Under the pieces are notes generated by a model. The model saw nothing but the letters and a program-made list of their open reading frames with translations, ran no database searches and was not told the origin of the DNA. The translations under genes were made by a program, and so were the position numbers. This document shows, one piece after another, positions 3,563 to 55,878 of a stretch of DNA of 64,000 nt. Source of the stretch: a virus; IMG/VR virus record IMGVR_UViG_3300040810_000656, positions 1-64,000 of that record; one strand, given 5' to 3'. Each line of letters starts with the position of its first letter. Position 1 is the first letter of the stretch.

Positions 3563-3564
3563 AA

Positions 3565-33917: not shown

Positions 33918-33937
33918 AGTATTTTTGCTCAGTAATT

Positions 33938-33972
33938 AAAAGAAAACCCCGTGTTTTATCACGGGGTTTTTT
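33938..33972. terminator. bidirectional intrinsic terminator between convergent blocks
   Basis: AAAACCCCGTG-TTTTAT-CACGGGGTTTT perfect 11-bp inverted repeat with A-rich tract before and T-tract after. Confidence 0.92.
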
Positions 33973-33978
33973 ATTAAA

Positions 33979-34308
33979 CTACTCTATGGTTTTGGTTTTT
34001 GGGTTCCATTTAACCCATCCACCGTCTGGTAGCCAGTTTCCTTCAGCATCCTTACGTCTTGGAAACAATCCACCGCCCTTCTTATTTACGCCAAACCCAA
34101 GTCTAGCACCACAATCCAGACAGCGAAGCTCATAATATTCGTTTCCATCGTTTTCACGAACAACATAACGTAAATTATGAGATCCACACTTCCCGCAAGC
34201 TTCTACGCCAAAGACTTCTTCAAATGAAGCAATCTCCTTAAATAAATCTTTTTGTGTTTCTCCTTCAATCTCTACAGATAGACTACCGACTTTTTTTACG
34301 ACTTTCAT
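33979..34308 (-). CDS. zinc-ribbon protein
   Basis: 109 aa; CGKCG...RCLDCG. Confidence 0.75.
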   Translation of the reverse strand: MKVVKKVGSLSVEIEGETQKDLFKEIASFEEVFGVEACGKCGSHNLRYVVRENDGNEYYELRCLDCGARLGFGVNKKGGGLFPRRKDAEGNWLPDGGWVKWNPKTKTIE

Positions 34309-35072
34309 TCAGACCTCCAGTTGGTTTTATAGCCCATGATTCCATCTGGAATAGGCTTTTTCTTATTCTGATAGCTATTCAATACTCCTAGCATTTTAGA
34401 TGCTGTTTCTTTAGTTACATCATCTATACTCGCATAGAAATCAGTACCAGAGTTAATAAACTCCATAACATCAATATCTAGCTGTTTACATTTAGTGTCA
34501 ATAAAATTAGCTTGTGCTGGAGTAATAGAAACATCGCCCCGCCACTCACTGTCAACTTCTTTACCATGTTTAGCAACACTTTCTTTGACAATAGATTCAA
34601 TATCCTTCTTTCTTGTCAGTTCTTCTGCTGCTAGACAACGAATCTTGAGAGCTTTACGAAGAGCACGACCTTCTGCTCTTGTGCTTGCTGTTGCAACAGG
34701 GTGAGCACAGAATAAATCATCTGTATTACCATGCCACACATCTGCAACCTCTGAATATGTTCTTAGTTTGCCTGTTCCTTGCCAGTCAATAACTACCTCA
34801 AACACTACCGTGGCACGACCAGGACCATCCACGCATGTCGCTGGAAACACATGTGAAGGACGACTCACAATAATGTCACCAAGGACTTCTTCGGCAACAC
34901 GACGTAGACCAGCACAAGTTGGATTGCCGTCAAATAGTTCTCCTGGCTCAAATTTATTCATTACCCAATCATTCCATTCCTGAGAACCATAAATAGGAGA
35001 CATTTCACGAACTTCATCTTTAGTGCCAACTTCAATTTCGTTATCTTCCATGTCAAAAAACTTTTCAGCCAT
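34305..35072 (-). CDS. putative single-strand annealing protein (Rad52/Sak-like)
   Basis: Start at MAEKFF (35072) behind GGAG; ATASTRAEGRALRKAL helix and C-terminal ITPAQ..I...ASKML module typical of SSAPs. Confidence 0.5.
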   Translation of the reverse strand: MAEKFFDMEDNEIEVGTKDEVREMSPIYGSQEWNDWVMNKFEPGELFDGNPTCAGLRRVAEEVLGDIIVSRPSHVFPATCVDGPGRATVVFEVVIDWQGTGKLRTYSEVADVWHGNTDDLFCAHPVATASTRAEGRALRKALKIRCLAAEELTRKKDIESIVKESVAKHGKEVDSEWRGDVSITPAQANFIDTKCKQLDIDVMEFINSGTDFYASIDDVTKETASKMLGVLNSYQNKKKPIPDGIMGYKTNWRSE

Positions 35073-35076
35073 AGGT

Positions 35077-35859
35077 TTAATTCTCCAAAGATACTTCAAT
35101 TTCAACAAGACGGTTTTGCTTACTCTTATGAGTTGATATGTTATCAATCATTGGCTTGATTTTTGCCCACATCTTTTCTCCTACGGCACGGGTCATTTTA
35201 TTGCAGAGGTATTTTATTCTAATTACAGAATATCCTTTAGACATAAGTAGACCATTTTTCTTTGCGTCATATTCTATTACTTTTTTCAAGCGTTCTTCGC
35301 CCCATACAGGCTCAAAATGATGTCGTCCATCAATTTCAATGACTATTTTTAATGCGGGAAGAAATATATCTATTTCATAGTCTCCTGGTATTAGGTCTTT
35401 TTTATGTAAAAGCACATCATAATTTTCTTCTAGTAATCTTCTGCGTAGAAATTTTTCCGCCTTAGATCCCTCAACTCCAGCAAGACGTATGCCGCGAGCA
35501 GCAGCACTTTTGAGTTCTTGTTTTTCAAGTTCTGACTTGCTTTCCCATCTTTCTTTTGCACTTTGTGATATTGCTTCTTTTTGTTTTTTTGATAGCTTGC
35601 TCCATCTATCAGATATGCCAAGAGATATATTTTTCTTTTCTTGTTCAGTTCTTTTTTTGCCAGCCGTAGGATGTGACGCTGTTCCCTGTTCTAGTGCGAG
35701 TTTTTGCGTTTCACTCCTGTTTCGTAGTTGATGTCCGTTTTTTGCAACAATTCTTGAAATCTTTTTTGGATATGTGCCAACTTCCTTGGCTATATCGTTA
35801 GCACTTCTATTTTTGTTTACGTATTGATCTATTACGTATGCCTCATTTATTTTCGACAC
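35077..35859 (-). CDS. homing-endonuclease-like protein: HTH + NUMOD3-like repeats + Vsr/DUF559 nuclease
   Basis: GKKRTEQEKKNIS repeats; SKAE, YEIDIF, IVIEIDGRHH, YDAKKN..L...GYSVIRI. Confidence 0.75.
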   Translation of the reverse strand: MSKINEAYVIDQYVNKNRSANDIAKEVGTYPKKISRIVAKNGHQLRNRSETQKLALEQGTASHPTAGKKRTEQEKKNISLGISDRWSKLSKKQKEAISQSAKERWESKSELEKQELKSAAARGIRLAGVEGSKAEKFLRRRLLEENYDVLLHKKDLIPGDYEIDIFLPALKIVIEIDGRHHFEPVWGEERLKKVIEYDAKKNGLLMSKGYSVIRIKYLCNKMTRAVGEKMWAKIKPMIDNISTHKSKQNRLVEIEVSLEN

Positions 35860-36313
35860 TTTTTATTACTCCCATTAATGTTTCTAAGTCCCAATTATCT
35901 ATGATTGCTATAGGTTTTTTATTACAAAAATTGTCGATCATTTGAGCGTGTGATTCGCTTCTAGCTATAATATTTAATCTATCGTCTCTTAATATATCAC
36001 AATATTTAGTAAAATTATTAGGATTTCTCAGCCACTCTAAGTCCCATAGATAAAGAAATTTACGAGAAGCATTATTTGCTTTTAGGGTTATTTCTGCTTC
36101 TGCAATTGTTGTGGCGATAGTATTGTGATGATACCCAGAAAGAAATGCTATTGACCTACAAGAAAACATCGTTGGCACAATAGGGATTGCGGACCTTTGG
36201 AAAAAAATAGAAGCACATATGTTAGTAGCTGATAATGCCTTGTTAAACTCTTTGATTAGATAAAACGATTTTTGTGATGGTCCCAGGTTGTTAATGACTG
36301 CCGCTATATTCAT
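35843..36313 (-). CDS. glycosyltransferase-like fragment (single Rossmann domain)
   Basis: 156 aa; IATT, KFLYLWDLEW, IIARSESH resemble a GT-B N-domain. Confidence 0.4.
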   Translation of the reverse strand: MNIAAVINNLGPSQKSFYLIKEFNKALSATNICASIFFQRSAIPIVPTMFSCRSIAFLSGYHHNTIATTIAEAEITLKANNASRKFLYLWDLEWLRNPNNFTKYCDILRDDRLNIIARSESHAQMIDNFCNKKPIAIIDNWDLETLMGVIKSVENK

Positions 36314-37008
36314 TTGTATCCTCTTTTCTTAGCTAGAACCCAGCATTGACAACAGTTTTTAGGCTCATTTGTTACCCGTCCCTCGCTATCCTTTAATGCG
36401 TTATAATCAGGCCAGGATTGAGTTCTAAACATTTGTTCTATATACTTGTTATTGCCCCATTGCCCGAGATTGACAACATCAAAATCTGCCCTATGAAATA
36501 AAACAGCAAGTCCCATTGGGGTGAATCCACCAAAATGCACTGGAGTCATATGTGGAATATTAATTGTTGGAACGCTCGTAAACACGTATCCGCCAGCCTT
36601 GACGTTCTTAGAGATATTAGCCACAGCCAAATATGGATCATATAGATGCTCAAGAGTCTGGCTGAATATAAAGAAGTCAAATGGCTCATCCAGTATTGGT
36701 ATTTCATGTAGATCATACGATGGGTATGAGATAAACGTATGCTTACTATATTTAGTAGCAATGAATTCTAATTCTGGGTCTTCTTGGCATGTAAACCCTA
36801 AATGCTCACCAGACATATCTTTGGTCCACTCAATAAAGTCAAGAATACACCATGTCCTTGGAAAATCGTGGCCGTCCCATTGACGATTTTTATTCCATCC
36901 ACCAGTTTCTTTTTGCCCTGGAAATGGTGGCAGCTTTTCCCATTTAGTAAAGTATTCTGGTCTTGGGGCTGTTTGATTATAAAGATCGTAAATTTCTTTC
37001 TCTGTCAT
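36310..37008 (-). CDS. class I SAM-dependent methyltransferase
   Basis: FDFFIFSQTLEHLYDP...VKAGGYVFTSVP. Confidence 0.75.
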   Translation of the reverse strand: MTEKEIYDLYNQTAPRPEYFTKWEKLPPFPGQKETGGWNKNRQWDGHDFPRTWCILDFIEWTKDMSGEHLGFTCQEDPELEFIATKYSKHTFISYPSYDLHEIPILDEPFDFFIFSQTLEHLYDPYLAVANISKNVKAGGYVFTSVPTINIPHMTPVHFGGFTPMGLAVLFHRADFDVVNLGQWGNNKYIEQMFRTQSWPDYNALKDSEGRVTNEPKNCCQCWVLAKKRGYK

Positions 37009-37682
37009 TGGATGGAACTCCTAAATTCTGTTCCGCTTAACTGTCCGCAAAGCTTTGGGTAACAATGCCATACGCTCATATCGAGCTTCTCAAAAAAATA
37101 ATTCAATTGCCAATCCAGCGGAAGGCAGAATCCCATCATGTCATATAACTTAGATAGCTTTTCCGCTGTTGGCCTAGAATATACTATTGATGATGTCGTG
37201 TTTGTAGATGGATGACCAGCTCGAAAATAATTTCTATATATTTCTTTTACGTTAAAGAAATCTATATTGAGCGGTCCACCAAGAAATAAAACATCAAAAT
37301 CTGGTGCTTCATCAATGACTTGCTGCATACTTATGTTATAGTGAAAGTTTACATCGTCTTCTAATATTAAAGCATGATCTAATTCAGAAGATAGAAATAA
37401 ATCTATTGCTTGGAAGTGTTTAAGTATCAATGATATTTCTGAGTTTTTTAGTGTTGTTTGTTCAATCCTGTCTATCCCGAGCTTTCTGACGCTAGGCTCT
37501 ACTGCCACATGAAAATAATCGGATTCTGTTATGTAGTTTGTTGTATCTTCACCAGTTAGTGAGTCTCCGTCAAAATCTGTTATAAACTTAGCGTCATTAA
37601 TGCCAAGCTTATTAAGCTCCATTTCTATATGTGGCTTACGTTCTGTTAATTTAGTATAATGTGGAATATATGTGTCAAACAT
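37005..37682 (-). CDS. glycosyltransferase family 25
   Basis: ERKPHI, SEISLILKH, ALILEDDV, PLDW. Confidence 0.8.
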   Translation of the reverse strand: MFDTYIPHYTKLTERKPHIEMELNKLGINDAKFITDFDGDSLTGEDTTNYITESDYFHVAVEPSVRKLGIDRIEQTTLKNSEISLILKHFQAIDLFLSSELDHALILEDDVNFHYNISMQQVIDEAPDFDVLFLGGPLNIDFFNVKEIYRNYFRAGHPSTNTTSSIVYSRPTAEKLSKLYDMMGFCLPLDWQLNYFFEKLDMSVWHCYPKLCGQLSGTEFRSSIQ

Positions 37683-38494
37683 CAGTCCTCCATCTTTGAT
37701 TTGATATAATTTGCCAATCCGCGAGGCGAGCAGTATTTATTATGCCAAGTATATGCTTTTTCAGAAGCGTTATGCATGTTAACATTGGACATAGTGTTAT
37801 CAATTACTTTCTCTACGTCTGACCAATTAGAAATCTTGACATATGGTGCTTCATTATAGAATAGCACTTTTGGTAAATCAATACCTACAACAATACAGCC
37901 ACACATCATAGCCTCAAAGAATCTAAACGTCTCATAACTAGCAGAGCCACATGGAACTAATGCTATTTTGGTATTGTTCAGAATCTCAGAATATTCTTCT
38001 TTTGAAACACCATTATTCCACCCCGTATACCAATCACATTTAAACTTATAGGCTGTGTTATTACAGAGCCTGTCAACAGCCATTTTAAAATCAACACGGC
38101 GATATGGGTCAAATTGGCCCATCCAGCACCAATCGTATTCTCTGCTATCTATTGGAGTATTCGTATTAACAACACCATTAAGATGACATAGAGGTATACC
38201 ATGTACCTGACGATGATATACAACAGTATTTACATCCCGCATGTTTGTCATTGGGTGATATTGTTTAAATACGTATTTTACCCTTGGATCATCAATACAT
38301 TCTGGTACTTGATGCGTTTCATCTGAGGTTGAGATAAATATGATTGGAAACCTAGTATCTGTTGGAAGAGGCTTATTCCAGTTATTAATCACATAAGAAT
38401 ATCTAGTGGGTAATTCATCTGCTAGAATTCTTGCTGCCGCCTCATAAACATGATCGTCGCCATTGCCTTTGGCAAGATTTATTACTTCTGACAT
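37682..38494 (-). CDS. exostosin/GT47-like glycosyltransferase
   Basis: Start MSEVIN (38494); YSEILNNTKIALVPCGSASYETFRFFEAMMCGCI. Confidence 0.7.
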   Translation of the reverse strand: MSEVINLAKGNGDDHVYEAAARILADELPTRYSYVINNWNKPLPTDTRFPIIFISTSDETHQVPECIDDPRVKYVFKQYHPMTNMRDVNTVVYHRQVHGIPLCHLNGVVNTNTPIDSREYDWCWMGQFDPYRRVDFKMAVDRLCNNTAYKFKCDWYTGWNNGVSKEEYSEILNNTKIALVPCGSASYETFRFFEAMMCGCIVVGIDLPKVLFYNEAPYVKISNWSDVEKVIDNTMSNVNMHNASEKAYTWHNKYCSPRGLANYIKSKMED

Positions 38495-38495
38495 A

Positions 38496-39494
38496 TTATC
38501 TCCAATATTCGTATATGTCTTTTTCAATTTCGTATGTGAACTTTTTAACTGGGCGATCCTTTTCTAGCATTGCCCACGAAAACATTTCATCTACTAATGA
38601 TTCTAAGTCTGTTTTGTCTTCAAAGTTAAGCAAGAATTTAGCCTTAGAGTGGTCACAGAAAGCTTCCTTTACTTCATGTCTAGGCTCAACGTGTTTAATT
38701 TCAGTATCTATGTAATACTTGGCGGCGACTTTCTTGACTAAGTTAGCAGCTTCTAGAATAGTATAATACTTGTCAGCACCAATGTTAAAGATCTCCCCGT
38801 TGTGAGCGTCATCCAATAGTTTATAAAATGGCTCCATATAATAGCGAATGTCAGAAAAGGCACGAACCTGTTTCCCGTCTCCATAAACTAATATAGGCTC
38901 TTGATTGATAGCCTTTCTGATAAAGATTCCAATTACATTTCTATACTTATCCCAAATGTTTTGATAAATACCAATCACGTTGTGTGGACGGATAATGTTA
39001 TATCTTAGTCCATGCTGATCGCCACCAACGGCAATATCCATCTCAACCGCATACTTGGCAATACCATATGGGTCTATTGGATTAGGACGCATTGACTCAT
39101 GAAATGGCGGCGGGCTATTTCCGTAAACAGCCATTGATGATGTGAATATCAGCTTAGTGTCATAGTTTATGCACGAATTAATAACTGACGCACTGCCTAT
39201 GATATTATTCATGTAGTTATACTTGCGTACAAATGGAGACAGGCCTTCTGCGGCATATGCCCCAAAATGATAACATGCGATTGGTCTATATTTATTAAAA
39301 ATATGATCTATGTATAACGAGGCATCTAAATTAAGATTATAGAATAGAAAGTCGCTATGCTGCGGCATGAAGTCAGAATAACCACCAGATAGATCATCAA
39401 CACCAATGACACGATATCCTTTATTGAGAAGATATCTAGATAAATGTGTCCCTAGTAATCCAGCACACCCAGTTACCACTATGGTTTGTGACAT
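38496..39494 (-). CDS. NAD-dependent nucleotide-sugar epimerase/dehydratase
   Basis: VTGCAGLLG, TSSMAVYG, YGIAK, YGDGKQVRAF. Confidence 0.92.
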   Translation of the reverse strand: MSQTIVVTGCAGLLGTHLSRYLLNKGYRVIGVDDLSGGYSDFMPQHSDFLFYNLNLDASLYIDHIFNKYRPIACYHFGAYAAEGLSPFVRKYNYMNNIIGSASVINSCINYDTKLIFTSSMAVYGNSPPPFHESMRPNPIDPYGIAKYAVEMDIAVGGDQHGLRYNIIRPHNVIGIYQNIWDKYRNVIGIFIRKAINQEPILVYGDGKQVRAFSDIRYYMEPFYKLLDDAHNGEIFNIGADKYYTILEAANLVKKVAAKYYIDTEIKHVEPRHEVKEAFCDHSKAKFLLNFEDKTDLESLVDEMFSWAMLEKDRPVKKFTYEIEKDIYEYWR

Positions 39495-40153
39495 TAGCTA
39501 TCTCCTGTTATGGTATTGCATTTTTTAATAAAGTCTGATCTTCTCCACGGTTCTCTTCCTATTAGAAAATGATGATAAATAACATTATCATATGTTGTGC
39601 CAACTCCAAAAAAAGTATTAGTACGGCCTATTCTCCATTTTGGATCGTTGCAACTAGTGACTTTTAGAAAGTTAATATTGACAGAAGACATTTCGCAATC
39701 ATAGGTGAATCTCTGTGCTACATCAGAATATTCATCTTCTATAAAACATAGTCTATCCATATGATTTAAAACTTTTTGCATTACGGTTTTTGGAATGGCT
39801 AAACACGCTGGCCCGGCGTATATATGTCCATTAGATTTATTAGCTTCGCATGTTTGCTCAATACCGCATATAGTATTTTTATCGACTTTAGATAATAAAT
39901 GCTCATAAAGTTTATTCGTAATTGGAACACAATCAAGATCAAAGAATACGGCTACATCAAAATCTACATTATCTATAATATAGTTACAGGTTTTACCTAG
40001 CCAATGACCATGTGGAATTTCTTCAAATTGTTGATTTAAGGTAAGATTAAAATAATCAAACACATCTTTTTGAGCTTTTGTTACATCTGATTCAATATTA
40101 AAAGAATATGACAACGGTAAAATTATTTGGTTGTTTATTTTAGTTGTTTTCAT
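39494..40153 (-). CDS. putative GT-A glycosyltransferase
   Basis: AVFFDLDCVP DxD motif; HIYAGPA; IYHHF; cluster context. Confidence 0.55.
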   Translation of the reverse strand: MKTTKINNQIILPLSYSFNIESDVTKAQKDVFDYFNLTLNQQFEEIPHGHWLGKTCNYIIDNVDFDVAVFFDLDCVPITNKLYEHLLSKVDKNTICGIEQTCEANKSNGHIYAGPACLAIPKTVMQKVLNHMDRLCFIEDEYSDVAQRFTYDCEMSSVNINFLKVTSCNDPKWRIGRTNTFFGVGTTYDNVIYHHFLIGREPWRRSDFIKKCNTITGDS

Positions 40154-40910
40154 GTAAGATCCTTTGTTTCCAGTATTCTTTTCTTAAAATAGGAGTATCA
40201 AAAAGAGCGTTATCTATTTTATCATAAGTTTTTTTGAGAAAATCTTCAGTAACTTCTGACCAATCATCAACAAACACAATTGGAAATTTTTCTTCAAAGC
40301 TGTGCGTATAGTATCTCTTGACAATAGGAATACATCCAAGCGTTATTGCTTCCCACATTCTGTGTGTATCAATACCATTTCCTCTTGGGCAAAGACAGAA
40401 CGCATAACTCATAAGATTGTCCACATATTGCTCAAAATTGGTTCCATTCAAACAATAATAATTATCAGCAAAGACTCTTTCGTTTGCAACCATTTCTATC
40501 AAATTATATCTTTCTTGAGTATATGTGTTTGGGTTGAATTGAGACAATGCTTTAATTTTTCTATTTTCTAAGCTTTTATTATGTGCGGCTTTTTTTAAAA
40601 TACTTCTTTTATGCGGATGCCAATGATTATTCTCTAATCCTATCGGAAGTGGGAAAATTTTGGGATGTTTGAACTCTAAATTTTGTGCATACCAAGCTAT
40701 GAGGTTTTCTGGAATAAGTCCATTTATTACAGACTCATCTCCATTATGCGTTATTAATTTAAATTTTGTATCTGGATGATTGCATATGATTCTAATAGCT
40801 TTTTGATAATGTGCGGTATCGCTATACAGTGTAACAAAATTTTTATCATGAGGAATTTCTTCATATATTTTTATGTCGGCTAAACTAACAAAAAAATCTC
40901 CATCAATCAT
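40140..40910 (-). CDS. exostosin/GT47-like glycosyltransferase
   Basis: LITHNGD, PIGLEN, FCLCPRGNGIDTHRMWEAITLGCIPIV. Confidence 0.75.
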   Translation of the reverse strand: MIDGDFFVSLADIKIYEEIPHDKNFVTLYSDTAHYQKAIRIICNHPDTKFKLITHNGDESVINGLIPENLIAWYAQNLEFKHPKIFPLPIGLENNHWHPHKRSILKKAAHNKSLENRKIKALSQFNPNTYTQERYNLIEMVANERVFADNYYCLNGTNFEQYVDNLMSYAFCLCPRGNGIDTHRMWEAITLGCIPIVKRYYTHSFEEKFPIVFVDDWSEVTEDFLKKTYDKIDNALFDTPILRKEYWKQRILHENN

Positions 40911-41733
40911 TTGAAGATCCCCCTAGATAAAATTTAGAATCTGGTTGCCAGCTACAATGCCACATGTGACAAGCAACGCTTTCTGGCTTTAGGCACGAAT
41001 AGATTAATTTTTCAGTTGCTGAATTTCTGTGTATCGCCGGAAAAGGAAAGAAACACATGGTAGGAAATATAATAATGTCATCATTACCTTCGTTACGAAG
41101 TTTATTAAAAATACATTGAGAAAGAAGAAATGGTCCTGTTTGAAATAAAGTTCTTGTCTGTCTACATGGTATTTCGTTGTAGGTAGTATTACTACAACCA
41201 AGAAGACAATTTAAAACTATTTTGTTGTTTTTAGAGCATCCAATAGCACCATTAGTCATAACTGGATCTTGATCAAACATCAAGCAAGAAAAAAAAGAAC
41301 AACACTTAGTTATATTTGAAAAACAACTAGAGACACATAGGAAATCTGTGTCTAGATAAATGCCGCCATACTCATATAATATCGCGTATCTTAGCATATC
41401 TGATTTATTGCCAAAATTATCACTTTCTTTATATTCGTTATACTTTGGTGTTTTTTTCATTAAGTTTTCAGCGGTAGCATCATCCCAAATCATGAACTCA
41501 AATAACGGATTTTTCCTTTGCCAATCATCAATGTTTGCAAGATACATATCTGGAGTCTCACCGCCAAGCCAAATAAAATGAAATATATTTGGTATTGGAT
41601 TTTTAGATTTAGACTGTATATTCTTGTAGTATGTATCTTTTAGTAAGTTCCAATTATAATCAGATTTAGCATAATTAATATTAAATTGAGAAGACTGCGA
41701 TTCACAGCTTTTAAAAAAATCTAAAGTAATCAT
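40903..41733 (-). CDS. glycosyltransferase family 32 (DxD; OCH1/capsular polysaccharide synthesis type)
   Basis: IPNIFHFIWLG, KSDMLRYAILYEYGGIYLDTD, TGPFLL, HMWHCSW. Confidence 0.88.
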   Translation of the reverse strand: MITLDFFKSCESQSSQFNINYAKSDYNWNLLKDTYYKNIQSKSKNPIPNIFHFIWLGGETPDMYLANIDDWQRKNPLFEFMIWDDATAENLMKKTPKYNEYKESDNFGNKSDMLRYAILYEYGGIYLDTDFLCVSSCFSNITKCCSFFSCLMFDQDPVMTNGAIGCSKNNKIVLNCLLGCSNTTYNEIPCRQTRTLFQTGPFLLSQCIFNKLRNEGNDDIIIFPTMCFFPFPAIHRNSATEKLIYSCLKPESVACHMWHCSWQPDSKFYLGGSSND

Positions 41734-42579
41734 TTATATCAATCCATTTAGTATATCTATTTCTTGATGTGGACATACAATATTAGATAAATCTAGTAAG
41801 TCCATGTCAATTCTTTTACCATTCATGTATTTTCCAAGCAAGAATTCTGATTCATACATAAAATGTTCTCCAGAAAAATTTTCAGTATGAGTTTTAGATA
41901 CTCTATTGTTTGGGCTATTTACTACAGTGCTATGCTGCGTACATACCATAAAGTTACCAGATATAGGCCAGAATCTTTGCATTTGTGTTTCAACTTCATT
42001 AGGTGTTTGTTTAAATTGAAATTTTTTACTTAGATATTCTATCTGACTAAACATGTCTATAATTTCTGATTTTCTAAAAACATGACCGTCCACAGAATGA
42101 GAGTAAGACCAATATGAGCCATATATGTACATAGTCTTAGGAACAAACACATAGTCGCCAATTTCCTGATAATGATTAAGCTCATCGCTCATTTCTCTTC
42201 CGTGATGAAATCTTTTATGTATATTTTTCCCTAGCCTTAGAGATAAACATACTACCTGCGGTGCAGAAAAAAGATTATCGTAAGAAACACTTTGGCTTAC
42301 CTGTCTATAAACTATATTGTCGTCGGTAAAGAAACATATATACTTATTGTTTGAATTTATTGATATGCTACATATGTCTGCATATATAGAATTACTTTGT
42401 GTTATGAATTTAATATTTGGGTGTTCTATTTTTACATTATTTAGGCTTTCCTGATATGCTTCACTATACTTTTCAAGTACAACTATATCATTGGTGTCTT
42501 TAAAATTTTTGGATATACTTTTTAAAGTTAAGTCTAGTTGCAAAGGGCGATCTTTGCTAAAGATAATAGATGTAATCAT
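41734..42579 (-). CDS. putative GT-A glycosyltransferase
   Basis: IIFSKDRPLQL, CFFTDDNI, SLRLG, SVDGHVF. Confidence 0.6.
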   Translation of the reverse strand: MITSIIFSKDRPLQLDLTLKSISKNFKDTNDIVVLEKYSEAYQESLNNVKIEHPNIKFITQSNSIYADICSISINSNNKYICFFTDDNIVYRQVSQSVSYDNLFSAPQVVCLSLRLGKNIHKRFHHGREMSDELNHYQEIGDYVFVPKTMYIYGSYWSYSHSVDGHVFRKSEIIDMFSQIEYLSKKFQFKQTPNEVETQMQRFWPISGNFMVCTQHSTVVNSPNNRVSKTHTENFSGEHFMYESEFLLGKYMNGKRIDMDLLDLSNIVCPHQEIDILNGLI

Positions 42580-43613
42580 AAATTAAAAGTTGGTATGGCT
42601 TTGAGTAGCTTTTTGCTTAGTTCGTTGTTCCCGGTGTATTTCAGTATATCCGATATGCGATGAAAGCTTGTATGATTGCTAAGAACGGTTTGGCGACCTT
42701 TTTTAGCGATAGATTTAGCTTCTTCTTGGTTATTAATATAGTAGTCAATTTTTTCTCGAAACTCTTCTCCAGTTTTAGCAAGCACAACACCATCATTAAA
42801 TACTTTTTCATAGGCCTTGCAATAATCTGAAACACAAAAACCTCCTGAGAATAGTATCTTAAATATTCTCTCATTTACATCTACTCCAAAGGCGTGGGCG
42901 TGTGGTTCAGATAGGTTAGGGCAAACCTTAGCAGATACAAATAGATTTTTTACTTGATTATCTTCTATGTATCCACAGTATTGATTAACAGGCCAACGCT
43001 GATTGCCAAAAATTTTGACTTTATATTTATCAATATCATTAAGCATAGGAAAAAGATATTCATTAATTATAAGTCCTTTGTGAGGCCAGTAGCCACCAAC
43101 AAAACCTATGTCGCATTTAAGTTTTGGGTCTGCTATAGCGTTGCCATACATCAGAGTATCGGCACACATCATAAGAGACTTTGCTGGGATTCCAATACTT
43201 TGAAAATATTCGTGAGTTTTGTTCACATCTTCTTGTAAATAATGTATATGAACAAAGTCGGGCTTGCCGGTTTCATCTTTAAGCTTCTTTAGGAGTCTTT
43301 TTTCTTTTTCTGATGCAAACAGCATGTTCCATTGGTTTTGATTTATTTCTTTTTCATGGCTTCCCCAATCTCCTGCCCGAAGCCCCACTTTTAGATGCGG
43401 GCGTTCATACAAACATTTGACAAGTGCTTCATCTAAATTGTAAGATTGTCCAAGAAAAATATCTGGTTCAAATGAATCAAAGACATCAAAAGCGGATACG
43501 TTCTTGCAGTCCCACAATTGAGCTTCTATACCAACGGCCCGAAAAGCATTAAGCCAAGCCACACGCTGAAAATAGTGAGCATGAATTCCATCACTAGAAA
43601 TTAAAACTTTCAT
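42576..43613 (-). CDS. CgeB/YkvP-like GT-B glycosyltransferase
   Basis: CDIGFVGG, VNERIFKI..SGGFCVSD, IAKKGRQTVLSNHT..HR. Confidence 0.8.
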   Translation of the reverse strand: MKVLISSDGIHAHYFQRVAWLNAFRAVGIEAQLWDCKNVSAFDVFDSFEPDIFLGQSYNLDEALVKCLYERPHLKVGLRAGDWGSHEKEINQNQWNMLFASEKEKRLLKKLKDETGKPDFVHIHYLQEDVNKTHEYFQSIGIPAKSLMMCADTLMYGNAIADPKLKCDIGFVGGYWPHKGLIINEYLFPMLNDIDKYKVKIFGNQRWPVNQYCGYIEDNQVKNLFVSAKVCPNLSEPHAHAFGVDVNERIFKILFSGGFCVSDYCKAYEKVFNDGVVLAKTGEEFREKIDYYINNQEEAKSIAKKGRQTVLSNHTSFHRISDILKYTGNNELSKKLLKAIPTFNL

Positions 43614-44326
43614 AAATCTTTCCTAACTTTGTCTATTTCAATAATTCTCATTTCCTCTGGTTCATAACACTGAAACACCCCACCATGAGATATGATATTA
43701 TTGAGTATCTCAAATGATAACAATTTTTTATGCTGTGCTTCAAACTTGGAAAATAATTGACGGGCTATCCTAAGTTCCTTACCTGTTATATATGCTATCT
43801 GACACCATTTGCACTCTAGACCATAAGAAAAAATACTAGCTATTTGGTTATTAATAGTAACACCAACTTCTTTTTTTTCTATCTGATTTTTATTATCTAT
43901 TAAAATAAATGACTTAGAATAATCTAAGTTGAGTGTCTCTGAATTAAATAATAAATCTCCATGTAAAAATAACACACCGTTTTTATGGGTATTATTGATA
44001 GCTAGTCTCAAGCTTTCTGAAGTGTTTGTTGTGTCATAAATTTGATTCTCAACAATTCTTGCTGCATTTTTTACTTTTTTTATTACTCGCTGAGAATCAT
44101 ATCCTACAACACAAATTATTTCTGGATCTTCAAAATGGCTATTTATAACAGCAAGCTGATGCTCGATGAGCGTTTTATCTCTTATTTTAAGCAAAGATCT
44201 TGGCTCATAAGATTTAATTCTAGAACCAACACCAGCAGCCAAAATTGCAACACATACATGATTAGGGCTTTTATTTTTTTTGTTTTGCCCCTTTTTAATG
44301 TCGGTTGTATAGTTTTTTTTAATCAT
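43610..44326 (-). CDS. sugar/phosphocholine nucleotidyltransferase (LicC/GlmU-like)
   Basis: ILAAGVGSRIKSYEPRSLL, VVGY, TNTSESL, LHGDLLF, EID. Confidence 0.8.
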   Translation of the reverse strand: MIKKNYTTDIKKGQNKKNKSPNHVCVAILAAGVGSRIKSYEPRSLLKIRDKTLIEHQLAVINSHFEDPEIICVVGYDSQRVIKKVKNAARIVENQIYDTTNTSESLRLAINNTHKNGVLFLHGDLLFNSETLNLDYSKSFILIDNKNQIEKKEVGVTINNQIASIFSYGLECKWCQIAYITGKELRIARQLFSKFEAQHKKLLSFEILNNIISHGGVFQCYEPEEMRIIEIDKVRKDL

Positions 44327-45102
44327 CGTGACCTTAGTATTTGAGCATTTCTTTCAAACATTTCAGCAGTCATTTTGTATGATTGATTTTTACCTGTATT
44401 ATTAGCAATAGCAAGCTTTTCAGGAACATGGGTCATCATACATATTCTTGACAATCTTAACCATAGATCATAGTCTTCTGTGCATCCTATAAATTCTTTA
44501 CTTGCTGGCCCATGTAACCTAGAGTCAAAAAACTCTTTGTTTGGTTGACACACTTTGGCAAGTACTTCTTTCTTTATTAAAGAATTGCTATGAACAATAC
44601 ATCTGTTTAATAGAACAGATCTATCATAAGGTTCTTTAAATTCATGCTGTTTGTATTTTGGATGTACGTTATCATAATCACCATAAGCAACGCCAATCTC
44701 TACGTGCTGCATTAATTTTTCTACAAGAGTAGAAACCTTATTAGAATAATAAGCATCGTCTGAATCTAAGATACCAAAGATGTCTGCCCATTCCCATGCT
44801 TCCCAGATCGCAACATTTCTTCCAGTGCTAGCACCAGAGTTGTTGATTCTGAAAGCATATAAATCATCCTTCCTTCGTTCCTCGATTGGTCCACTATAAT
44901 ATGGCTGATTCAGAGTTCTTTTTTCAAATGGCTCACTTATAGAAGAAATTTCTTCCCACGAATGATCACTAGATCCATCATCAACAACATATACCCTTAA
45001 AGGCCCATCATAGTCTTGGCATGTTGCACTAATTATAGCATCTTTTACATAGTCACCGTAATTATAGTTTGTGCATATGATGGCTACATTAGGCTTGTTC
45101 AT
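44323..45102 (-). CDS. glycosyltransferase family 2
   Basis: NYNYG, VVDDGSSD, NSGASTGRN, LDSDD, EDYDLWLR. Confidence 0.92.
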   Translation of the reverse strand: MNKPNVAIICTNYNYGDYVKDAIISATCQDYDGPLRVYVVDDGSSDHSWEEISSISEPFEKRTLNQPYYSGPIEERRKDDLYAFRINNSGASTGRNVAIWEAWEWADIFGILDSDDAYYSNKVSTLVEKLMQHVEIGVAYGDYDNVHPKYKQHEFKEPYDRSVLLNRCIVHSNSLIKKEVLAKVCQPNKEFFDSRLHGPASKEFIGCTEDYDLWLRLSRICMMTHVPEKLAIANNTGKNQSYKMTAEMFERNAQILRSR

Positions 45103-45853
45103 TAAATTCCCCCCATGTGATAAACGTATCTGGGTGACTAGAGGCTGCGTATGCCCTAACCTTATCTAAAAATAAGTCATCATTAATTTTTTCATCAGAA
45201 AATATCTTTAAACGATTACCGTTGAGGAATTTAAACAATGCAGATTGAAATAATAACCCACTTAAATTTTCACTAACAGGCTCTACTACTACTAATGTTT
45301 TCATCTGCACGTTTACTCTATGGTTTATTTTTTCTATCAAACGTCTATCTATTGCATCTCCAGAGTCGCAAACATAAATCCATCCATTTTTAGCGTGTTT
45401 AAATGCTTCATCTATAAGAAACTCAGATATTTGTGGTTTGGCGACCAACTGAAGTATATGATGTTCTGTTACATTAAAGTCAAAACTTGATTTTAGTGTT
45501 TTTTGTATTTCTGCATTATACTCTACAGCATCATTAATAACAACCACATATCTGGCTTGCATAGTTTGATTTTTTATGTCGTCAATAGTGTTTTTTAGTT
45601 TGTCTAAATTTCTATTAAACCTAATAAAAAAACCGACTTTTGGCTGCACCTCCTTTAATGCCGTTTTAACAAGATCATTAGACTCTTCTAATGATAGCTC
45701 AGTCAACCATTCTTTTGGTCTATAGCAATTACAAAATCTTTCTAAGATTATATTTCCGTCTTCAATTTTATGTTTTAGTTTTTCAAGCCTATTTAAATCA
45801 CACAAGCTACCATCTTTTAAAAACACACATCCTTCACAACTTGTATTTAACAT
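45089..45853 (-). CDS. degenerate GT2-like protein with Cys-rich N-terminus
   Basis: CEGCVF..C...FCNC then PKVGFFI..LKNTIDDIKNQT..VVVIND. Confidence 0.45.
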   Translation of the reverse strand: MLNTSCEGCVFLKDGSLCDLNRLEKLKHKIEDGNIILERFCNCYRPKEWLTELSLEESNDLVKTALKEVQPKVGFFIRFNRNLDKLKNTIDDIKNQTMQARYVVVINDAVEYNAEIQKTLKSSFDFNVTEHHILQLVAKPQISEFLIDEAFKHAKNGWIYVCDSGDAIDRRLIEKINHRVNVQMKTLVVVEPVSENLSGLLFQSALFKFLNGNRLKIFSDEKINDDLFLDKVRAYAASSHPDTFITWGEFNEQA

Positions 45854-46275
45854 TATGATTTTCTCCTAGCTACTATTGTAAAATTACAAGTCTGATGATC
45901 ATAATGCTTTTGTTCAACGTAAAGATTTGGAGGAAGCAGACCTTCTAGTGAGATAAGCGAACTAACCGATTTTCGTTTTTGTTCAGAAAACAAAGCAGCG
46001 TTTATACTGTCTTCATCTATTTCTTCATTATATTTTCTTCTAGCTAAAATATTCATGTCTATATCAGTAATTGTTAGTTTGCCGTTAAGTCTTAGTTTAG
46101 TGGCTAGTTTTTTTAATAGCTCTTGGTATTCATTAATACTGAAAGAAGAAATAAAGTGATCGCATACAATGTCTGTTCCTTCTGAATTTAACAGAATGCC
46201 GTCTAGCATTGGCAAGCTATTTGCCCATTTGCCGCTAGTGCCTTCTGGCTTATTTGTTGACAGGTATACCTTCAT
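45853..46275 (-). CDS. methyltransferase-like protein (truncated class I fold)
   Basis: Start MKVYLS behind GGAGG; LLKKLATKLRLNGKLTI. Confidence 0.45.
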   Translation of the reverse strand: MKVYLSTNKPEGTSGKWANSLPMLDGILLNSEGTDIVCDHFISSFSINEYQELLKKLATKLRLNGKLTITDIDMNILARRKYNEEIDEDSINAALFSEQKRKSVSSLISLEGLLPPNLYVEQKHYDHQTCNFTIVARRKS

Positions 46276-47308
46276 ATATTCCTCCGTTTTTTTTATTTTC
46301 AATAGCCTGGAAAAACAACCTATTCCAGCCTTCAGTGAAGCGATTTAAATTAAACTTTTCTAATATTGTTTTTCTAGCATTGTCGCCAAGTTCACGAGCC
46401 TTTTCTGGATTTGCAAGAAGCTCTTCTAAGAAGGTTCTCAACTCTTTAGGGTCATTTGACAACAACCCATTATAATTGTGTTCGATAATTTCTGGTATCA
46501 TACAGTTGGCTGTAGAGACTATAGCACAACCGCAAGCCATTGCTTCCATTAAGACAGTTGGAACAGGTGAGTGCAAAGAAGTATTATAGAATATACTATG
46601 CTCACTATATACTTGGCGAAGATGCTCAATTGAATTTGCGGGTTCAGAAAAGCCAGGACTTTTACCATATACTTGTGTTGGTAAGCCTCGTGTTGTATCT
46701 CTCCATAAGTTAAACCCACAGCACCAATCTCTATTAGGCCAATCATTTACTACAGATAAACATGCATTTATTCTGTTTTTAGATACAGGACGCCAAAAAT
46801 CTGTATCTACACCATGCTCAATTATTTCAGCACTTCTTTTGCTTCTAATCCAGGCTTTGGCGTTATATTTAGATATGAATGAATCTAAATCCACCTTAAT
46901 ACTGTTAAAGCCAGCTACTTGTGTCTCTTCTGGCATTCTTATATCTGGTAAAATATGAGTATGTCTAATAATCGGAATAGAGATTTTATTCAGGGTTTGT
47001 TCATTATTCTGAGCTACTACATTATGTAGCACCATTAATCTTTTATCAGATGTATGGCTAAGTATTAAATCAAAATCAAGATAGCTTGGAATATTATTTA
47101 TGATGTGATAATTTTCTGGAATTGGAGCATAGTCTGTATCCCAAGTTTTTTGGCCTGGAATATTTAAGGCATAAAAATTATGACCCGTTTTACACAGATT
47201 GTATTCATATCTTTCATGTGTTGTTGCAGTAAGTATGTTTAAAGGCTCATCTTTTTTTGGATGATGCATTATAGCACGTATATTTGTCTGTGTGGCATTA
47301 ACTGTCAT
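46250..47308 (-). CDS. glycosyltransferase family 4 (GT-B)
   Basis: IEHGVDTDFW, PTVLMEAMACGCAIVST, NGLL, LGDNARKTI. Confidence 0.9.
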   Translation of the reverse strand: MTVNATQTNIRAIMHHPKKDEPLNILTATTHERYEYNLCKTGHNFYALNIPGQKTWDTDYAPIPENYHIINNIPSYLDFDLILSHTSDKRLMVLHNVVAQNNEQTLNKISIPIIRHTHILPDIRMPEETQVAGFNSIKVDLDSFISKYNAKAWIRSKRSAEIIEHGVDTDFWRPVSKNRINACLSVVNDWPNRDWCCGFNLWRDTTRGLPTQVYGKSPGFSEPANSIEHLRQVYSEHSIFYNTSLHSPVPTVLMEAMACGCAIVSTANCMIPEIIEHNYNGLLSNDPKELRTFLEELLANPEKARELGDNARKTILEKFNLNRFTEGWNRLFFQAIENKKNGGIYEGIPVNK

Positions 47309-48389
47309 TAAGTAGCTCCTTTATAGTTTTCCCTACTATAGTATGGTCCATCTTTGTGGCTTCTTTCACAGCTTTTTTAGACAGTACGTCAGCTTCTTTT
47401 GATTTCCATTTCATGTACGCTTCACGCATAGCGAATTGTAATCCACGCAAATCAATTTCTCTCCAATAAGCACCATAATTGTCTAAGTTTGGAACTGTGT
47501 CTATAGCACCAAAGCATGGTTGCTCAGTAGAATCTACAGATCTACCTACTCCAAAATCATCAATACCAGTGTTTTTAGTCCATATCACAGGTACACCGCA
47601 GGCCATAGACTCTAAAGCTGGGATACAAAAAGCCTCTCCCCTGCTAGGCATCACAAAGCGGTGACATTGTTTTATAATAGATTTATACATCTTATCTTCA
47701 AGCATACCAGATAAAACTATTTCTTTTTTATAGCTCTTTCTTAATTTCATTCTAGCTTTTATTCCATCGCAATATTTTTGTACCATTGAAGCATTTGCCT
47801 TAGAGGTTTTTAAAACTAGATTAACGGGTTCTTCTGGATAAAACTCAGCATGAAAAGATTGAATAAGGGCTTTTACATTCTTTCTTTCTATGAATTCACC
47901 AATAAACAAAAAATTGAATGTATTATCAATTTCTTTGATGCCTCCAATTGACTTATGAGTTTGGTATTCGGATATGTTTAATGAATGAGGAACCACGTAT
48001 ATTGGAACTTTAACACCGCTCATTCTACAATGACCTTTACATTCTAAGCTAGGAACCCATATTTCATCCATTAGATTTAATGATTCTGTCCATCCAGTAA
48101 GTTTAAATGGAGACGTTTCAACGTCTAAGAATCCAATGTTTTTGTAATTCGCATTATATGATAAAAGATGTGGAAGCACATGCTGTATGCAAATATTACA
48201 GCCATAAGAGGATTTAGCTTCCAGTTGCTTGATTCTTTCTGGATAGTCAATCTGCCGTGCTTCGTATGACACAGCTCTAGGAATCACATTTATTCCAACA
48301 TTATCCATCGCTAGAATGTTATTCAAACACGCATTACCCCATCCAGTTCCATCTCTATAATTTCCAATGTATAATACTTTATTTGACAT
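47298..48389 (-). CDS. glycosyltransferase family 4 (GT-B)
   Basis: DEIWVPS, FIERKN, FVMPSRGEAFCIPALESMACGVPVI. Confidence 0.9.
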   Translation of the reverse strand: MSNKVLYIGNYRDGTGWGNACLNNILAMDNVGINVIPRAVSYEARQIDYPERIKQLEAKSSYGCNICIQHVLPHLLSYNANYKNIGFLDVETSPFKLTGWTESLNLMDEIWVPSLECKGHCRMSGVKVPIYVVPHSLNISEYQTHKSIGGIKEIDNTFNFLFIGEFIERKNVKALIQSFHAEFYPEEPVNLVLKTSKANASMVQKYCDGIKARMKLRKSYKKEIVLSGMLEDKMYKSIIKQCHRFVMPSRGEAFCIPALESMACGVPVIWTKNTGIDDFGVGRSVDSTEQPCFGAIDTVPNLDNYGAYWREIDLRGLQFAMREAYMKWKSKEADVLSKKAVKEATKMDHTIVGKTIKELLNDS

Positions 48390-50022
48390 TACTAATCACC
48401 TTTTGATATCTAGCTTGTTCCCAGCTATTTAGCTGGTTTCTAAAGTTTAACAATTCTTTACCAGCTTCTTCAATAGAAAAGGCTTTAAACTTATTATAGG
48501 ATTGAATATGTGATTCATTAAAATAACAATTTGCATCAACATTATCACATCTGTATCCATATGTGCAGTCTCTTAATACTCTTCTCCAAAAATATCCGCC
48601 AATCCAATCTGGTTTACATAAAACATTATTAAACAAAAAGTTTACTTTATCTTGTAGAGAAAGATTCTCAGGAACACTTGTTGCTGGCTGCTTTATTCTT
48701 GGTGGACTAAGCCAAGTAGATTTAATATCTTGAAGTTCTACTCTATTTGCATAGTCGATCCATTTATTGGCTGCATTATCCCATGTATAATGGGACTTTG
48801 CTTTATTCATTACTTCTATGCCCTTAGCACGTATTTGTTCTGGCGTTTCGTTTGTTAGTGCAAGCAAATAATTAATGAATTTTTCATTATCTGGAATGGC
48901 TCTCATGCATCCAGTTTCGCATTCTTTGTTATACGCCAGTGGCTCAATACCTACACCTCCTATGTTATCAATAACAGACTGCATGGCAGAATAGTATGTA
49001 GAAATAACAGGAAGCCCACAATAAGCGGCTTCTAGTTGAGGCATACCAAAACCTTCGCTGTTTGCGTATTGCACATAGACATCAAATATATTGTATATTT
49101 TTGCAAGATCTTCTTCCGACATCTTATTATTAATACCAACAAGTTGATTAGTAAACTTGCCGCAGTTCTTACAGTGCTGCACAGAATCTTGGAAAAAGTC
49201 AGAACTAATTTTATTACAGTTCTTGCATTTATATGTAAACAAAACCCTGTTTGACAAACTATGCTCATCTAAAAGACTTGGAATATCCCAGCCAATGTCT
49301 GGATAATATGTGTGGCAATATAAAAACACATTGTTCTTTTTTGTTCTATTTAAGAATTCTCTGAAAGCCTTAAATAAATCTGGATATAGTTTGCGTTTTT
49401 GGTTTCTCATTACAGTGCCAATAATTAATGATTGAGAATGAACACCGTGTTTTTGCTTGTGTTCATATTTATTGTCAATCATATTAAATGTATCACTTGC
49501 TGCTGGGGGTGCTAGATCTACAAATTTCATGTTGTCAGACTGTGAAGCAAGTGTATCGCGGCCAAACTCAGAATATGCAAAAATAGCATCTGCGTCTTCA
49601 TATGTTGCAATCCACTGATTATTTTGGGGAGCGGCGTCTACAGTAGGCATAAGTGCCCATTTGTAAAAATCTCTAAATGGAGAACGCTGTTCAAATTCTA
49701 CCATCCACCAATCTCTTATGTCCATCACTACATCTGGCATAAAGTCTATTAAAACTTCATTATAGGTAAAGTCTCCAAATTGAGCAGTTGGATTACTATA
49801 AGAGCTAAAATTTGGATGATCTTTGGATGGTTTATTTGGATAAATCTTCCAAGGATACTGTTTTATTTGAGGGTCTTCGGCTCCAGCATAAACACCCAAT
49901 TGAGCAACTTCAATATTTGGCTGTTGAGCCATTCTTTGAAGCACTTCATTGGTATAAACTGAATAGCCAGTTGTTAGCCAAGGAGCCTCTGATACAAATA
50001 ATACTTTAGTTTTTCTATTCAT
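48379..50022 (-). CDS. glycosyltransferase family 4 with zinc-ribbon insertion
   Basis: TTGYS, VMRNQKRK, CKNC-x14-CKNC insert, YANSEGFGMPQLEAAYCGLPVI. Confidence 0.88.
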   Translation of the reverse strand: MNRKTKVLFVSEAPWLTTGYSVYTNEVLQRMAQQPNIEVAQLGVYAGAEDPQIKQYPWKIYPNKPSKDHPNFSSYSNPTAQFGDFTYNEVLIDFMPDVVMDIRDWWMVEFEQRSPFRDFYKWALMPTVDAAPQNNQWIATYEDADAIFAYSEFGRDTLASQSDNMKFVDLAPPAASDTFNMIDNKYEHKQKHGVHSQSLIIGTVMRNQKRKLYPDLFKAFREFLNRTKKNNVFLYCHTYYPDIGWDIPSLLDEHSLSNRVLFTYKCKNCNKISSDFFQDSVQHCKNCGKFTNQLVGINNKMSEEDLAKIYNIFDVYVQYANSEGFGMPQLEAAYCGLPVISTYYSAMQSVIDNIGGVGIEPLAYNKECETGCMRAIPDNEKFINYLLALTNETPEQIRAKGIEVMNKAKSHYTWDNAANKWIDYANRVELQDIKSTWLSPPRIKQPATSVPENLSLQDKVNFLFNNVLCKPDWIGGYFWRRVLRDCTYGYRCDNVDANCYFNESHIQSYNKFKAFSIEEAGKELLNFRNQLNSWEQARYQKVISNVK

Positions 50023-50320
50023 CGTTATCAATATCGTTAAAGATTTTAAAACTAGTTACACGAAACACAAAATTATTACTATAGTTTCTAGCAATTGCTT
50101 CTATTACTATATAATCACCAAATCTACCTTGATTGGCAATCGCTTTTGCTGCCGTGTCCCATGCTTCAAAAGTCAAAACATTGTTTCTTTTTTTGGTGTA
50201 GCCTTCGCGGTCTTTGCGATGTTCTTCTACGTTAACTTTAAAACGACAAACTGTTGTATTGTGGACATTTTCTAAAATTGGGTCTTCCACAAACTTCCCA
50301 AGAAAATTACATTTATTCAT
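50015..50320 (-). CDS. ssb: single-stranded DNA-binding protein (short OB fold)
   Basis: MNKCNFLGKFVEDP, VCRFKVNV, FEAWDTAA, GDYIVIEA; short acidic C-terminus. Confidence 0.85.
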   Translation of the reverse strand: MNKCNFLGKFVEDPILENVHNTTVCRFKVNVEEHRKDREGYTKKRNNVLTFEAWDTAAKAIANQGRFGDYIVIEAIARNYSNNFVFRVTSFKIFNDIDNDE

Positions 50321-50323
50321 TTA

Positions 50324-52556: not shown

Positions 52557-52776
52557 GAATCTTATCCTTTAATAGGGAAGAAAATTTATTAACAGCTTCG
52601 TCAAGATTAGCATAAAGATTGTAGCATCTGTGCTTCTCAGACCATACTTGATACTTAGCACTACGCTTAATTATAGCATTCTTCATTACGTTGTCAATAT
52701 TGCAAATGGATACACCATCAACATCAAGCGATCCGCCCCCATAAATAACAGCTTTAACGTCTTGTTTAGTCATCAT
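52549..52776 (-). CDS. hypothetical 75-aa protein between dnaE-N and dnaQ
   Basis: ATGA overlap with the dnaE-N stop; GGAG RBS; stop overlaps dnaQ start. Confidence 0.7.
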   Translation of the reverse strand: MMTKQDVKAVIYGGGSLDVDGVSICNIDNVMKNAIIKRSAKYQVWSEKHRCYNLYANLDEAVNKFSSLLKDKIHG

Positions 52777-55877: not shown

Positions 55878-55878
55878 T

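Follow-up and report, generated by a model that had tools for sequence, protein, structure and literature searches.

The subject of this study is an island of 17 minus-strand open reading frames (ORFs) for glycan synthesis, which occupies positions 35843–50031 of a 64-kb stretch of viral DNA (here called the window), the first part of the linear, 96,992-bp IMG/VR virus record IMGVR_UViG_3300040810_000656. The phage is uncultured, with a genome of 100–150 kb. Lying directly after the genes for DnaE-C and ssb, the island encodes ten glycosyltransferases (GTs) with family support, a GT-D-like protein, an isolated N-terminal GT-B half, one nucleotidyltransferase, one epimerase of the GalE-like type, two methyltransferases and one 219-aa protein. 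What is new is the arrangement: throughout the clade a fixed core of eight genes is followed by a hypervariable block, and the whole keeps a fixed place behind the replisome genes. In the papers that were searched there was no description of a core-plus-variable layout joined to a replisome operon, of a zinc-ribbon, intein-rich GT such as the first island gene (GT4a), or of a free-standing half-GT-B protein. The explanation that we tentatively prefer is glycosylation of the phage's own virion proteins in the cytoplasm, independently of a lipid carrier.

The original prediction described a 14-kb island with overlapping or abutting genes behind dnaE-C and ssb, and without an internal terminator, and it was borne out on each point. 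Structural genes, including one for a 2031-aa tape measure protein, run along the plus strand (78–33917), and a single long leftward block, starting at 33979, carries genes for replication and recombination (a split DnaE with an exonuclease between its halves, ssb, primase, DnaB and RecA), for nucleotide metabolism (deoxynucleoside monophosphate (dNMP) kinase, class II ribonucleotide reductase, ThyX, dCMP deaminase and dUTPase), and for PhoH, rIIA/B and a sigma factor. Within the island all junctions fall between -26 and +1 nt (first-ATG starts), and the ATG of GT4a at 50022 overlaps the stop of the ssb-like gene (50015–50320, minus strand; phrog_44, E 1.4e-4) by 8 nt, a junction of -8 nt. The sole strong minus-strand terminator-like site within 33500–53000 is a hairpin at 33970–33943 (11-bp stem with 6 G-C pairs, and a T run), 3' of the last operon gene and closing the leftward operon; totals of terminator- and promoter-like sites do not exceed those of shuffled sequence.

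Relatives were collected from IMG/VR as 56 loci found via DnaE-C and 64 found via a 280-aa protein of the operon tail, 104 distinct contigs altogether, two of the relatives being complete with terminal repeats (148,313 and 158,520 bp). Synteny maps of these loci revealed the same architecture throughout. The upstream order is DnaE-N, a 75-aa ORF, the exonuclease, DnaE-C and ssb, and this is followed by the core: GT4a, GT4b, GT4c, a small methyltransferase, a weak GT2, a GT2, the nucleotidyltransferase and a CgeB-like GT. Among loci reaching far enough, presence of the core genes ranges from 39/39 (GT4a) down to 25/26, the one exception being the most divergent contig, which retains a reduced set. 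The core is often trailed by a GDP-fucose-synthase-like (Fcl-like) enzyme and a GT-D-like protein, and after it comes the variable block, with 2 to more than 12 genes and a different content in each contig (about 41734 to 36310 in the window), then the half-GT-B, a DUF559 endonuclease, the 280-aa and a 109-aa protein, and finally the convergent structural genes. The variable blocks of 64 loci contain 594 ORFs that fall into 150 clusters, and in their Pfam tally the predominant families are DegT aminotransferases, epimerases/dehydratases, GDP-mannose dehydratase, several kinds of methyltransferase including FkbM, formyltransferases, Sulfotransfer_2, cytidylyltransferases, PIG-L deacetylases and more GTs.

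The eight core genes are, in order of transcription, as follows. GT4a (48379–50022, with the ORF extending to 50031), a 547-aa GT-B/GT4 enzyme, is the first and most conserved island gene (Pfam Glycos_transf_1, 4e-12; 39/39 relatives), and next are GT4b (47298–48389; 1e-13; 35/36) and GT4c (46250–47308; 1e-15; 32/33). All three score 46–58 bits against a Glycos_transf_1 cut-off of 26.4, and so belong to GT4. The small methyltransferase (45853–46275, ORF to 46302; 31/32 relatives) has no Pfam match and was placed by its class-I methyltransferase fold, its Atlas structure reaching a template modelling (TM) score of 0.83–0.85 to Methyltransf_11 clusters. It is followed by the weak GT2-like gene (45089–45853; 29/29), which matches Glycos_transf_2 at 5.7e-4 and 20.3 bits, under the cut-off, and by the GT2 gene proper (44323–45102; Glycos_transf_2, 1.5e-11; 25/26). 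The predicted nucleotidyltransferase (43610–44326; NTP_transf_3, 3e-12; 26/26) is IspD-like in Pfam and of the MobA/IspD/GlmU N-domain type, a sugar-phosphate nucleotidyltransferase whose NCBIfam matches are all well under their cut-offs. Last is the CgeB-like GT (42576–43613; PF13524, 1e-23; 25/26).

The variable block opens with a semi-conserved GT-D (DUF1792)-like protein (41734–42579), which has no Pfam or PHROG match and no sequence-level membership in GT-D, and which was recognized by an Atlas structure with a TM score of 0.84 over 259 residues to a PF08759 cluster. Next is a DXD-type GT (40903–41733; 1.6e-16), which had been called GT32 and is Gly_transf_sug (PF04488); in L069, a relative of 70% identity, other ORFs take its place. 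A GT47/exostosin-like GT (40140–40910; PF03016, 34.6 bits, cut-off 33.4), the 219-aa protein (39494–40153), an NDP-sugar 4-epimerase/dehydratase of the GalE-like type (38496–39494; PF01370, 6e-41; TIGR01179, 7e-35, under its cut-off), an RXYLT1_C/GT47-like GT (37682–38494, ORF to 38527; PF24785, 28.7 bits, cut-off 27), a GT25 (37005–37682; PF01755, 30.1 bits, cut-off 24) and a class-I S-adenosylmethionine-dependent methyltransferase (36310–37008; Methyltransf_11, 8e-7) make up the remainder. Thus the predicted families, including three GT4, two GT47-like, the CgeB-like, GT25 and epimerase genes, the GT2 pair (the weaker under cut-off) and two methyltransferases, were largely recovered. Two further DxD GTs had also been proposed; one of these is the GT-D-like protein, supported by structure, and the other is the 219-aa protein, for which no Pfam, PHROG or PDB sequence match was found.

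The last island gene (35843–36313) encodes a lone N-terminal, acceptor-side half of a GT-B/GT4 enzyme. The structure model (pLDDT 92.4) consists of the N-terminal Rossmann half and the returning C-terminal helix. Foldseek was uninformative, and the fold was placed by VIA-align, with a match to 6eji (Z 17.1, rmsd 2.2, 151 residues aligned) ahead of other GT4 chains (Z 12–15); no sequence-level family membership was found. A homologue is present in most of the 64 loci and in most relatives it ends the variable block. PDB sequence and profile searches with the CgeB-like GT, the 219-aa protein, the half-GT and the 280-aa protein returned nothing usable.

Just as characteristic are the functions that could not be found. 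The original prediction had noted that the island lacks a flippase, Wzy, Wzz, an ABC exporter and an initiating transferase, and that its products look soluble, and wider searches agree. By hydropathy, no protein of the 97-kb record or of a complete relative (G001) has more than two hydrophobic segments except the tape measure, and none of the 594 variable-block ORFs of the 64 loci has two or more. Profiles for Bac_transf (PF02397), WecA/MraY-type transferases (PF00953) and the ABC ATPase (PF00005) matched nothing in the five records searched, of which two are complete, and the positive controls of these searches worked.

GT4a carries a four-Cys zinc ribbon as an insert within its donor domain, with cysteines (C269/C272/C287/C290) that are invariant in 26 sequences, and its C-terminus is extended by about 120 aa. 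The structure model is of the GT-B type (pLDDT 89.7) and the closest PDB structure is B736L of chlorovirus NY-2A (3oy2; E 2e-19, 15% identity), a likeness only at the level of the GT4 fold since MshA, GlgM and PimB' come next. An exhaustive search (E <=1e-30) gave 552 clusters at 50% identity, carried on contigs that span 29% to 64% GC. The proteins are acidic (pI 5.0–6.6) and the N-domain of GT4a is net negative. Matches in cellular genome collections proved in 16/16 cases to be the same DnaE-ssb-GT4a phage module (GC 0.29–0.64), so that there is no cellular context and no reliable host, and GT4a is therefore a phage hallmark gene and not a recent bacterial acquisition. A megablast search of the island against GenBank phages gave no match, and tblastn with GT4a found distant cyanophage and Rhodothermus-phage GTs only, so no cultured relative is known.

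Two further observations were made on this family and its carriers. About 30% of the best GT4a representatives (45/150) are 720–1283 aa long, and in the long forms the match is broken at two sites, around residues 103–134 and 323–327, the latter adjoining the NSEGFG catalytic motif; the four long forms that were scanned (P0083, P0096, P0104 and P0173) carry Hint/LAGLIDADG inteins, which are unusual in a GT. Clade contigs L132–L147 have been binned in metagenome-assembled genomes labelled as Flavobacteriales, SAR202, Verrucomicrobiales, Paceibacteria, Phycisphaerales, Promethearchaeota, Thermoplasmatales and others, labels that are unsafe for host inference because mis-binning is probable.

On the explanation preferred here, the island would be a phage-encoded glycan assembly line, independent of lipid carriers and operating in the cytoplasm of the infected cell. 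It would be transcribed with the replication genes, unbroken to the terminator-like site at 33970–33943. The core (zinc-ribbon GT4a, GT4b, GT4c, methyltransferase, two GT2-type enzymes, nucleotidyltransferase and CgeB-like GT) would make an inner glycan, with GT4a as the candidate initiating transferase, and the hypervariable transferases and tailoring enzymes would attach strain-specific outer sugars, this outer set comprising in the window phage the GT-D-like, Gly_transf_sug, two GT47-like and GT25 proteins, the epimerase and a methyltransferase. Most likely the acceptor would be one or several proteins of the virion itself, with the sugars attached before the cell lyses. Cytoplasmic virion glycosylation is favoured because a core conserved like replication genes is combined with O-antigen-like reshuffling, soluble enzymes and a lack of carrier and export genes. 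Such a combination would be expected if the phage could not do without the glycan and the glycan were open to recognition from outside, the hypervariable tailoring set being the pattern expected of an externally recognized glycan. The phage itself encodes at least 10 GTs together with the nucleotidyltransferase, epimerase, Fcl-like enzyme and UDP-galactopyranose mutase (glf), and about 13 ORFs of the 97-kb fragment match GT families at E <0.001. Also in favour are the position of glf (2459–3562, plus strand; PF03275, 7.6e-72) within the late structural operon, the chlorovirus GT that is the nearest solved structure to GT4a, and the acidity of the GT4a family. It is possible, if less secure, that this widespread clade of uncultured tailed phages possesses an essential 'serotype' system, in which the fixed core puts an inner glycan on the virion and recombining cassettes diversify the outer sugars, and this would correspond, in a phage, to the combination of lipopolysaccharide (LPS) core and O-antigen, and also to the fibril glycans of giant viruses.

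Several considerations weigh against virion glycosylation. The glycan and its acceptor are predictions from gene content, and the record is 66% complete according to CheckV. The island lies within the replication operon, not the structural operon. No Ser/Thr-rich tract (15-aa window, >=60% Ser/Thr) occurs in the virion-module proteins, so the acceptor, if a protein, is not mucin-like. GT25, Caps_synth, WavE, GT4 and GT2 are families characteristic of LPS and capsule synthesis, lipid-linked intermediates of the host could be elongated by soluble GTs, and envelope-type genes (DUF1559 prepilin, DUF1501 and PAP2) are present in the same genome.

The latter points lead to the alternative that survives best, although we regard it as rather unlikely, namely that the host envelope is remodelled. 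The GTs would then add sugars, at the inner membrane face, to host intermediates that are either undecaprenyl-linked or of the lipid A-core type, host flippases and ligases would export the products, and the altered surface of the infected cell could, for example, exclude superinfecting phages or grazers. Most O-antigen GTs are soluble or peripheral too, so solubility does not count against such an extension, the families are those of LPS, capsule and exopolysaccharide loci, and envelope-directed genes are found elsewhere in the genome. Comparable gene sets of cyanophages have been interpreted in this way (PMC1079782, PMC12801897). Against it, no initiating transferase, flippase, polymerase or ABC exporter was found among about 100 contigs (64 loci by hydropathy; five records, two complete, by profile), and a phage glycan of such variability would need to get through exporters specialized for the repeat units of the host. 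Conservation of the core resembles that of a replication gene, and about 30% of the best GT4a representatives are long forms, the four scanned being intein-bearing. No tyrosine integrase was found and rIIA/rIIB are present, which makes lysogenic serotype conversion unlikely.

A second alternative, which we consider improbable, retains cytoplasmic synthesis and changes the product to a free or protein-primed methylated polysaccharide, a glycolipid, or glycosylated host proteins made during takeover. GT4 enzymes and methyltransferases do also make cytoplasmic methylated polysaccharides, and one such structure (7qsg) is among the structural neighbours of GT4a, but it is difficult to see why the outer enzymes should be so hypervariable if they served an internal metabolite, out of reach of external recognition.

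More doubtful still is hypermodification of DNA, whereby GT4a, a zinc-ribbon GT-B enzyme encoded just after ssb, would glycosylate the phage genome, and some of the other enzymes would extend the sugar as a defence against host nucleases. Its attraction lies in the fixed place of GT4a, which immediately follows DnaE-C and ssb even in the most divergent relatives, in the zinc-ribbon insert, and in a conserved dNMP kinase of the same operon. The DNA glucosyltransferases of T4 are likewise GT-B enzymes, the half-GT-B match to 1y6f being a generic one. Inteins favour DNA-related proteins, and the GT4a family contains them. However, every described route to DNA glycosylation needs a ThyA homologue, or a methylase plus a dioxygenase (PMC13326640; bioRxiv 10.1101/2023.12.21.572611). 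Neither a ThyA-like hydroxylase/hydroxymethylase (PF00303) nor a C5 DNA methylase (PF00145) had a profile match in the record or in the two complete relatives, and there was none for TET/JBP (PF12851) in the same genomes, in a search without a positive control; hence no known route appears to be available. ThyX, dCMP deaminase and dUTPase point to a normal dTMP supply and ordinary thymidine. Known DNA glycans have 1–3 sugars, against at least 13 GTs in this phage, sulfo-, formyl- and aminotransferases occur in the variable block of relatives, and GT4a is acidic with a net negative N-domain. Glycosylation of DNA by GT4a through a handle chemistry yet to be described would be a rarer alternative. 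The original proposal of a cytoplasmic glycan built on a phage substrate, either virion proteins or DNA, thus stands as regards a large phage-borne assembly line without lipid-carrier or export genes of its own, and its DNA option is weakened. Finally, an assembly chimera, in which bacterial DNA was joined to a phage contig, might be suspected from the bacterial-looking gene content and an island GC of 0.30–0.39 but is rejected by the conserved synteny in 104 viral contigs, two of them complete with terminal repeats, by GC that is even (0.30–0.40) over the island and its flanks, and by the overlap with replisome genes.

Among known systems, phage glycan gene sets of comparable size have been published. 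There are 24 such genes in cyanophage P-SSM2 (PMC1079782) and 22, including 13 GTs, in S-SCSM2R (PMC12801897), and the fibril glycosylation clusters of Megavirinae comprise 6–33 genes and are clade-specific (PMC10117803), so the size of the pathway is not unprecedented, contrary to the suggestion that it might be undescribed. The cyanomyovirus sets, known as 'LPS / cell-wall modification' genes, are accessory, vary between close relatives and belong to T4-like phages, whereas the eight-gene core of the present clade is fixed clade-wide and tied to the replisome genes. The Megavirinae (Mimivirus, Moumouvirus, Tupanvirus; PMC10117803, PMC9614988) share virus-encoded nucleotide-sugar pathways and GTs, clade-to-clade differences, aminotransferases and methyl- or sulfate-modifying enzymes, and their virions are coated without the membrane glycosylation machinery of the host. 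They are, however, eukaryotic giant viruses with chemically proven glycans and acceptor fibrils, while the window phage has a bacterial host and is known from its genes alone, and no core-behind-replisome layout has been described for them.

Chloroviruses use cytoplasmic virus-encoded GTs and methyltransferases to make a glycan whose core is conserved and whose decorations differ between strains. Glycosylation of their major capsid protein (PMC9614988) resembles the present case in that B736L (3oy2) is the best structural match of GT4a, but the chlorovirus genes are scattered and do not form one operon, and the match, being at the level of the fold, implies no shared acceptor. Mycobacteriophages offer another parallel, being tailed phages whose own GTs modify the capsid and tail-tube subunits of the virion. 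Work by Freeman and colleagues in 2023 is said to describe few GT genes in those systems, near the structural genes. The glycans are reported to be on the C-termini of capsid and tail-tube subunits (PMC12619734). The window phage differs in having at least 13 GTs, in a replication operon, and no Ser/Thr tracts.

Phage DNA glycosylation (T4 agt/bgt; glycans on 5-hydroxymethylcytosine and 5-hydroxycytosine) likewise places GT-B enzymes among replication and nucleotide genes with a dNMP kinase, but its obligatory base-hydroxylating enzymes were not found here, and the scale and tailoring of the island go far beyond the known mono- to trisaccharides. Bacterial O-antigen and capsule loci have a similar mixture of GT families and sugar-nucleotide genes, and a variable block between conserved genes, but their initiating phosphoglycosyl transferase, Wzx, Wzy, Wzz and ABC transporter were not found in the present records. 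In the O-glycosylation of serine-rich-repeat proteins (GtfA/GtfB, GT-D), a GT-D (DUF1792) transferase and a non-catalytic GT-B-like partner take part; the GT-D-like protein and the half GT-B might be their counterparts by structure, neither being a member by sequence, and no Ser/Thr-rich repeat acceptor was found in the virion module.

That viruses make sugar coats is established in the case of giant viruses and, at a smaller scale, of mycobacteriophages. If virion glycosylation is correct, an abundant lineage of environmental phages would have complex and fast-diversifying glycan coats as one of its core traits. This would affect the recognition of phages by hosts, by grazers and by sinks, marine particles among them, and would account for many of the 'LPS-like auxiliary genes' of viromes. 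The variable block is also a large library of soluble GTs and tailoring enzymes, apparently independent of lipid carriers and useful for glycoengineering, and GT4a, fixed behind the replisome, is one concrete enzyme with an acceptor that can be tested in vitro.

Glycan genes also occur outside the island. A third GT47-like GT (PF24785, 8.5e-8) and a further methyltransferase (Methyltransf_11, 1.2e-10) lie between the DnaE-N and exonuclease genes (54331–55919, minus strand). Beyond the window there is a second glycan group (record 76026–80426) with a GT4 and a weak GT2-like gene, as well as a soluble PAP2 protein, a DUF1501 protein, an Fcl-like enzyme and a DUF1559 prepilin. A gene for a 640-aa protein with Intein_splicing and LAGLIDADG_3 domains (record 74120–76042; L001:11120–13042) lies immediately upstream of this second GT4 gene. 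The PAP2-family protein, which has no transmembrane segment, and its 241-aa partner (record 81433–82814; L002:2433–3814) travel with glycan genes; in relatives the pair adjoins DnaE-N (L048, L134) or lies a few genes upstream of it (L144), and in L134 and L144 its neighbour is a homologue of the ORF that precedes glf. That ORF (1371–2477, plus strand) overlaps glf and specifies a clade-specific protein of 368 aa; it was considered as a galactofuranosyl transferase, which could not be shown, its 82 homologues having no Pfam family. When contig L148:1–4700 was compared to 1371–3933 of the window, the structural genes were 97–100% identical, glf 63% and the ORF upstream of it 50%, and this points to cassette replacement. 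At this position other relatives encode large proteins of 646–1124 aa. Among possible acceptors, the putative major tail (tube) protein (6864–7898) has the highest GC in its module and a strongly conserved, Ser/Thr/Tyr-rich C-terminal segment with an Asn-Ala-Thr tripeptide in nearly all of 44 relatives, a segment that could possibly be an acceptor site.

Minor features of the operon complete the description. A sigma-70-type promoter-like site (52670–52697, minus strand), with a perfect TTGACA-16-TATAAT (12/12 consensus matches) and a TG extension, sits within the 75-aa ORF between the DnaE halves; it is a consensus match only, and it may be an internal promoter for the exonuclease, DnaE-C, ssb and the glycan island. 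In relatives L050 and L053, DnaE-C is split by a DUF559-type endonuclease ORF, and RecA is 700 aa in G001 (record 99684–102540), possibly by virtue of an intein, compared to 357 aa here. For the unknown proteins and those of the tail module, PHROGs gave no match. The host could be guessed to be a member of the Planctomycetota, from DUF1559 and DUF1501 alone. The conserved tail of the operon (33979–35859, minus strand), which is kept in relatives, comprises the DUF559/HNH-like endonuclease (PF04480, 1e-6; phrog_559) and the 280-aa and 109-aa proteins. The 280-aa protein (34305–35147), which has no match in Pfam, PHROG or PDB, is the best-conserved unknown of the operon, with 71 invariant columns across 20 relatives and one invariant run of more than 30 residues.

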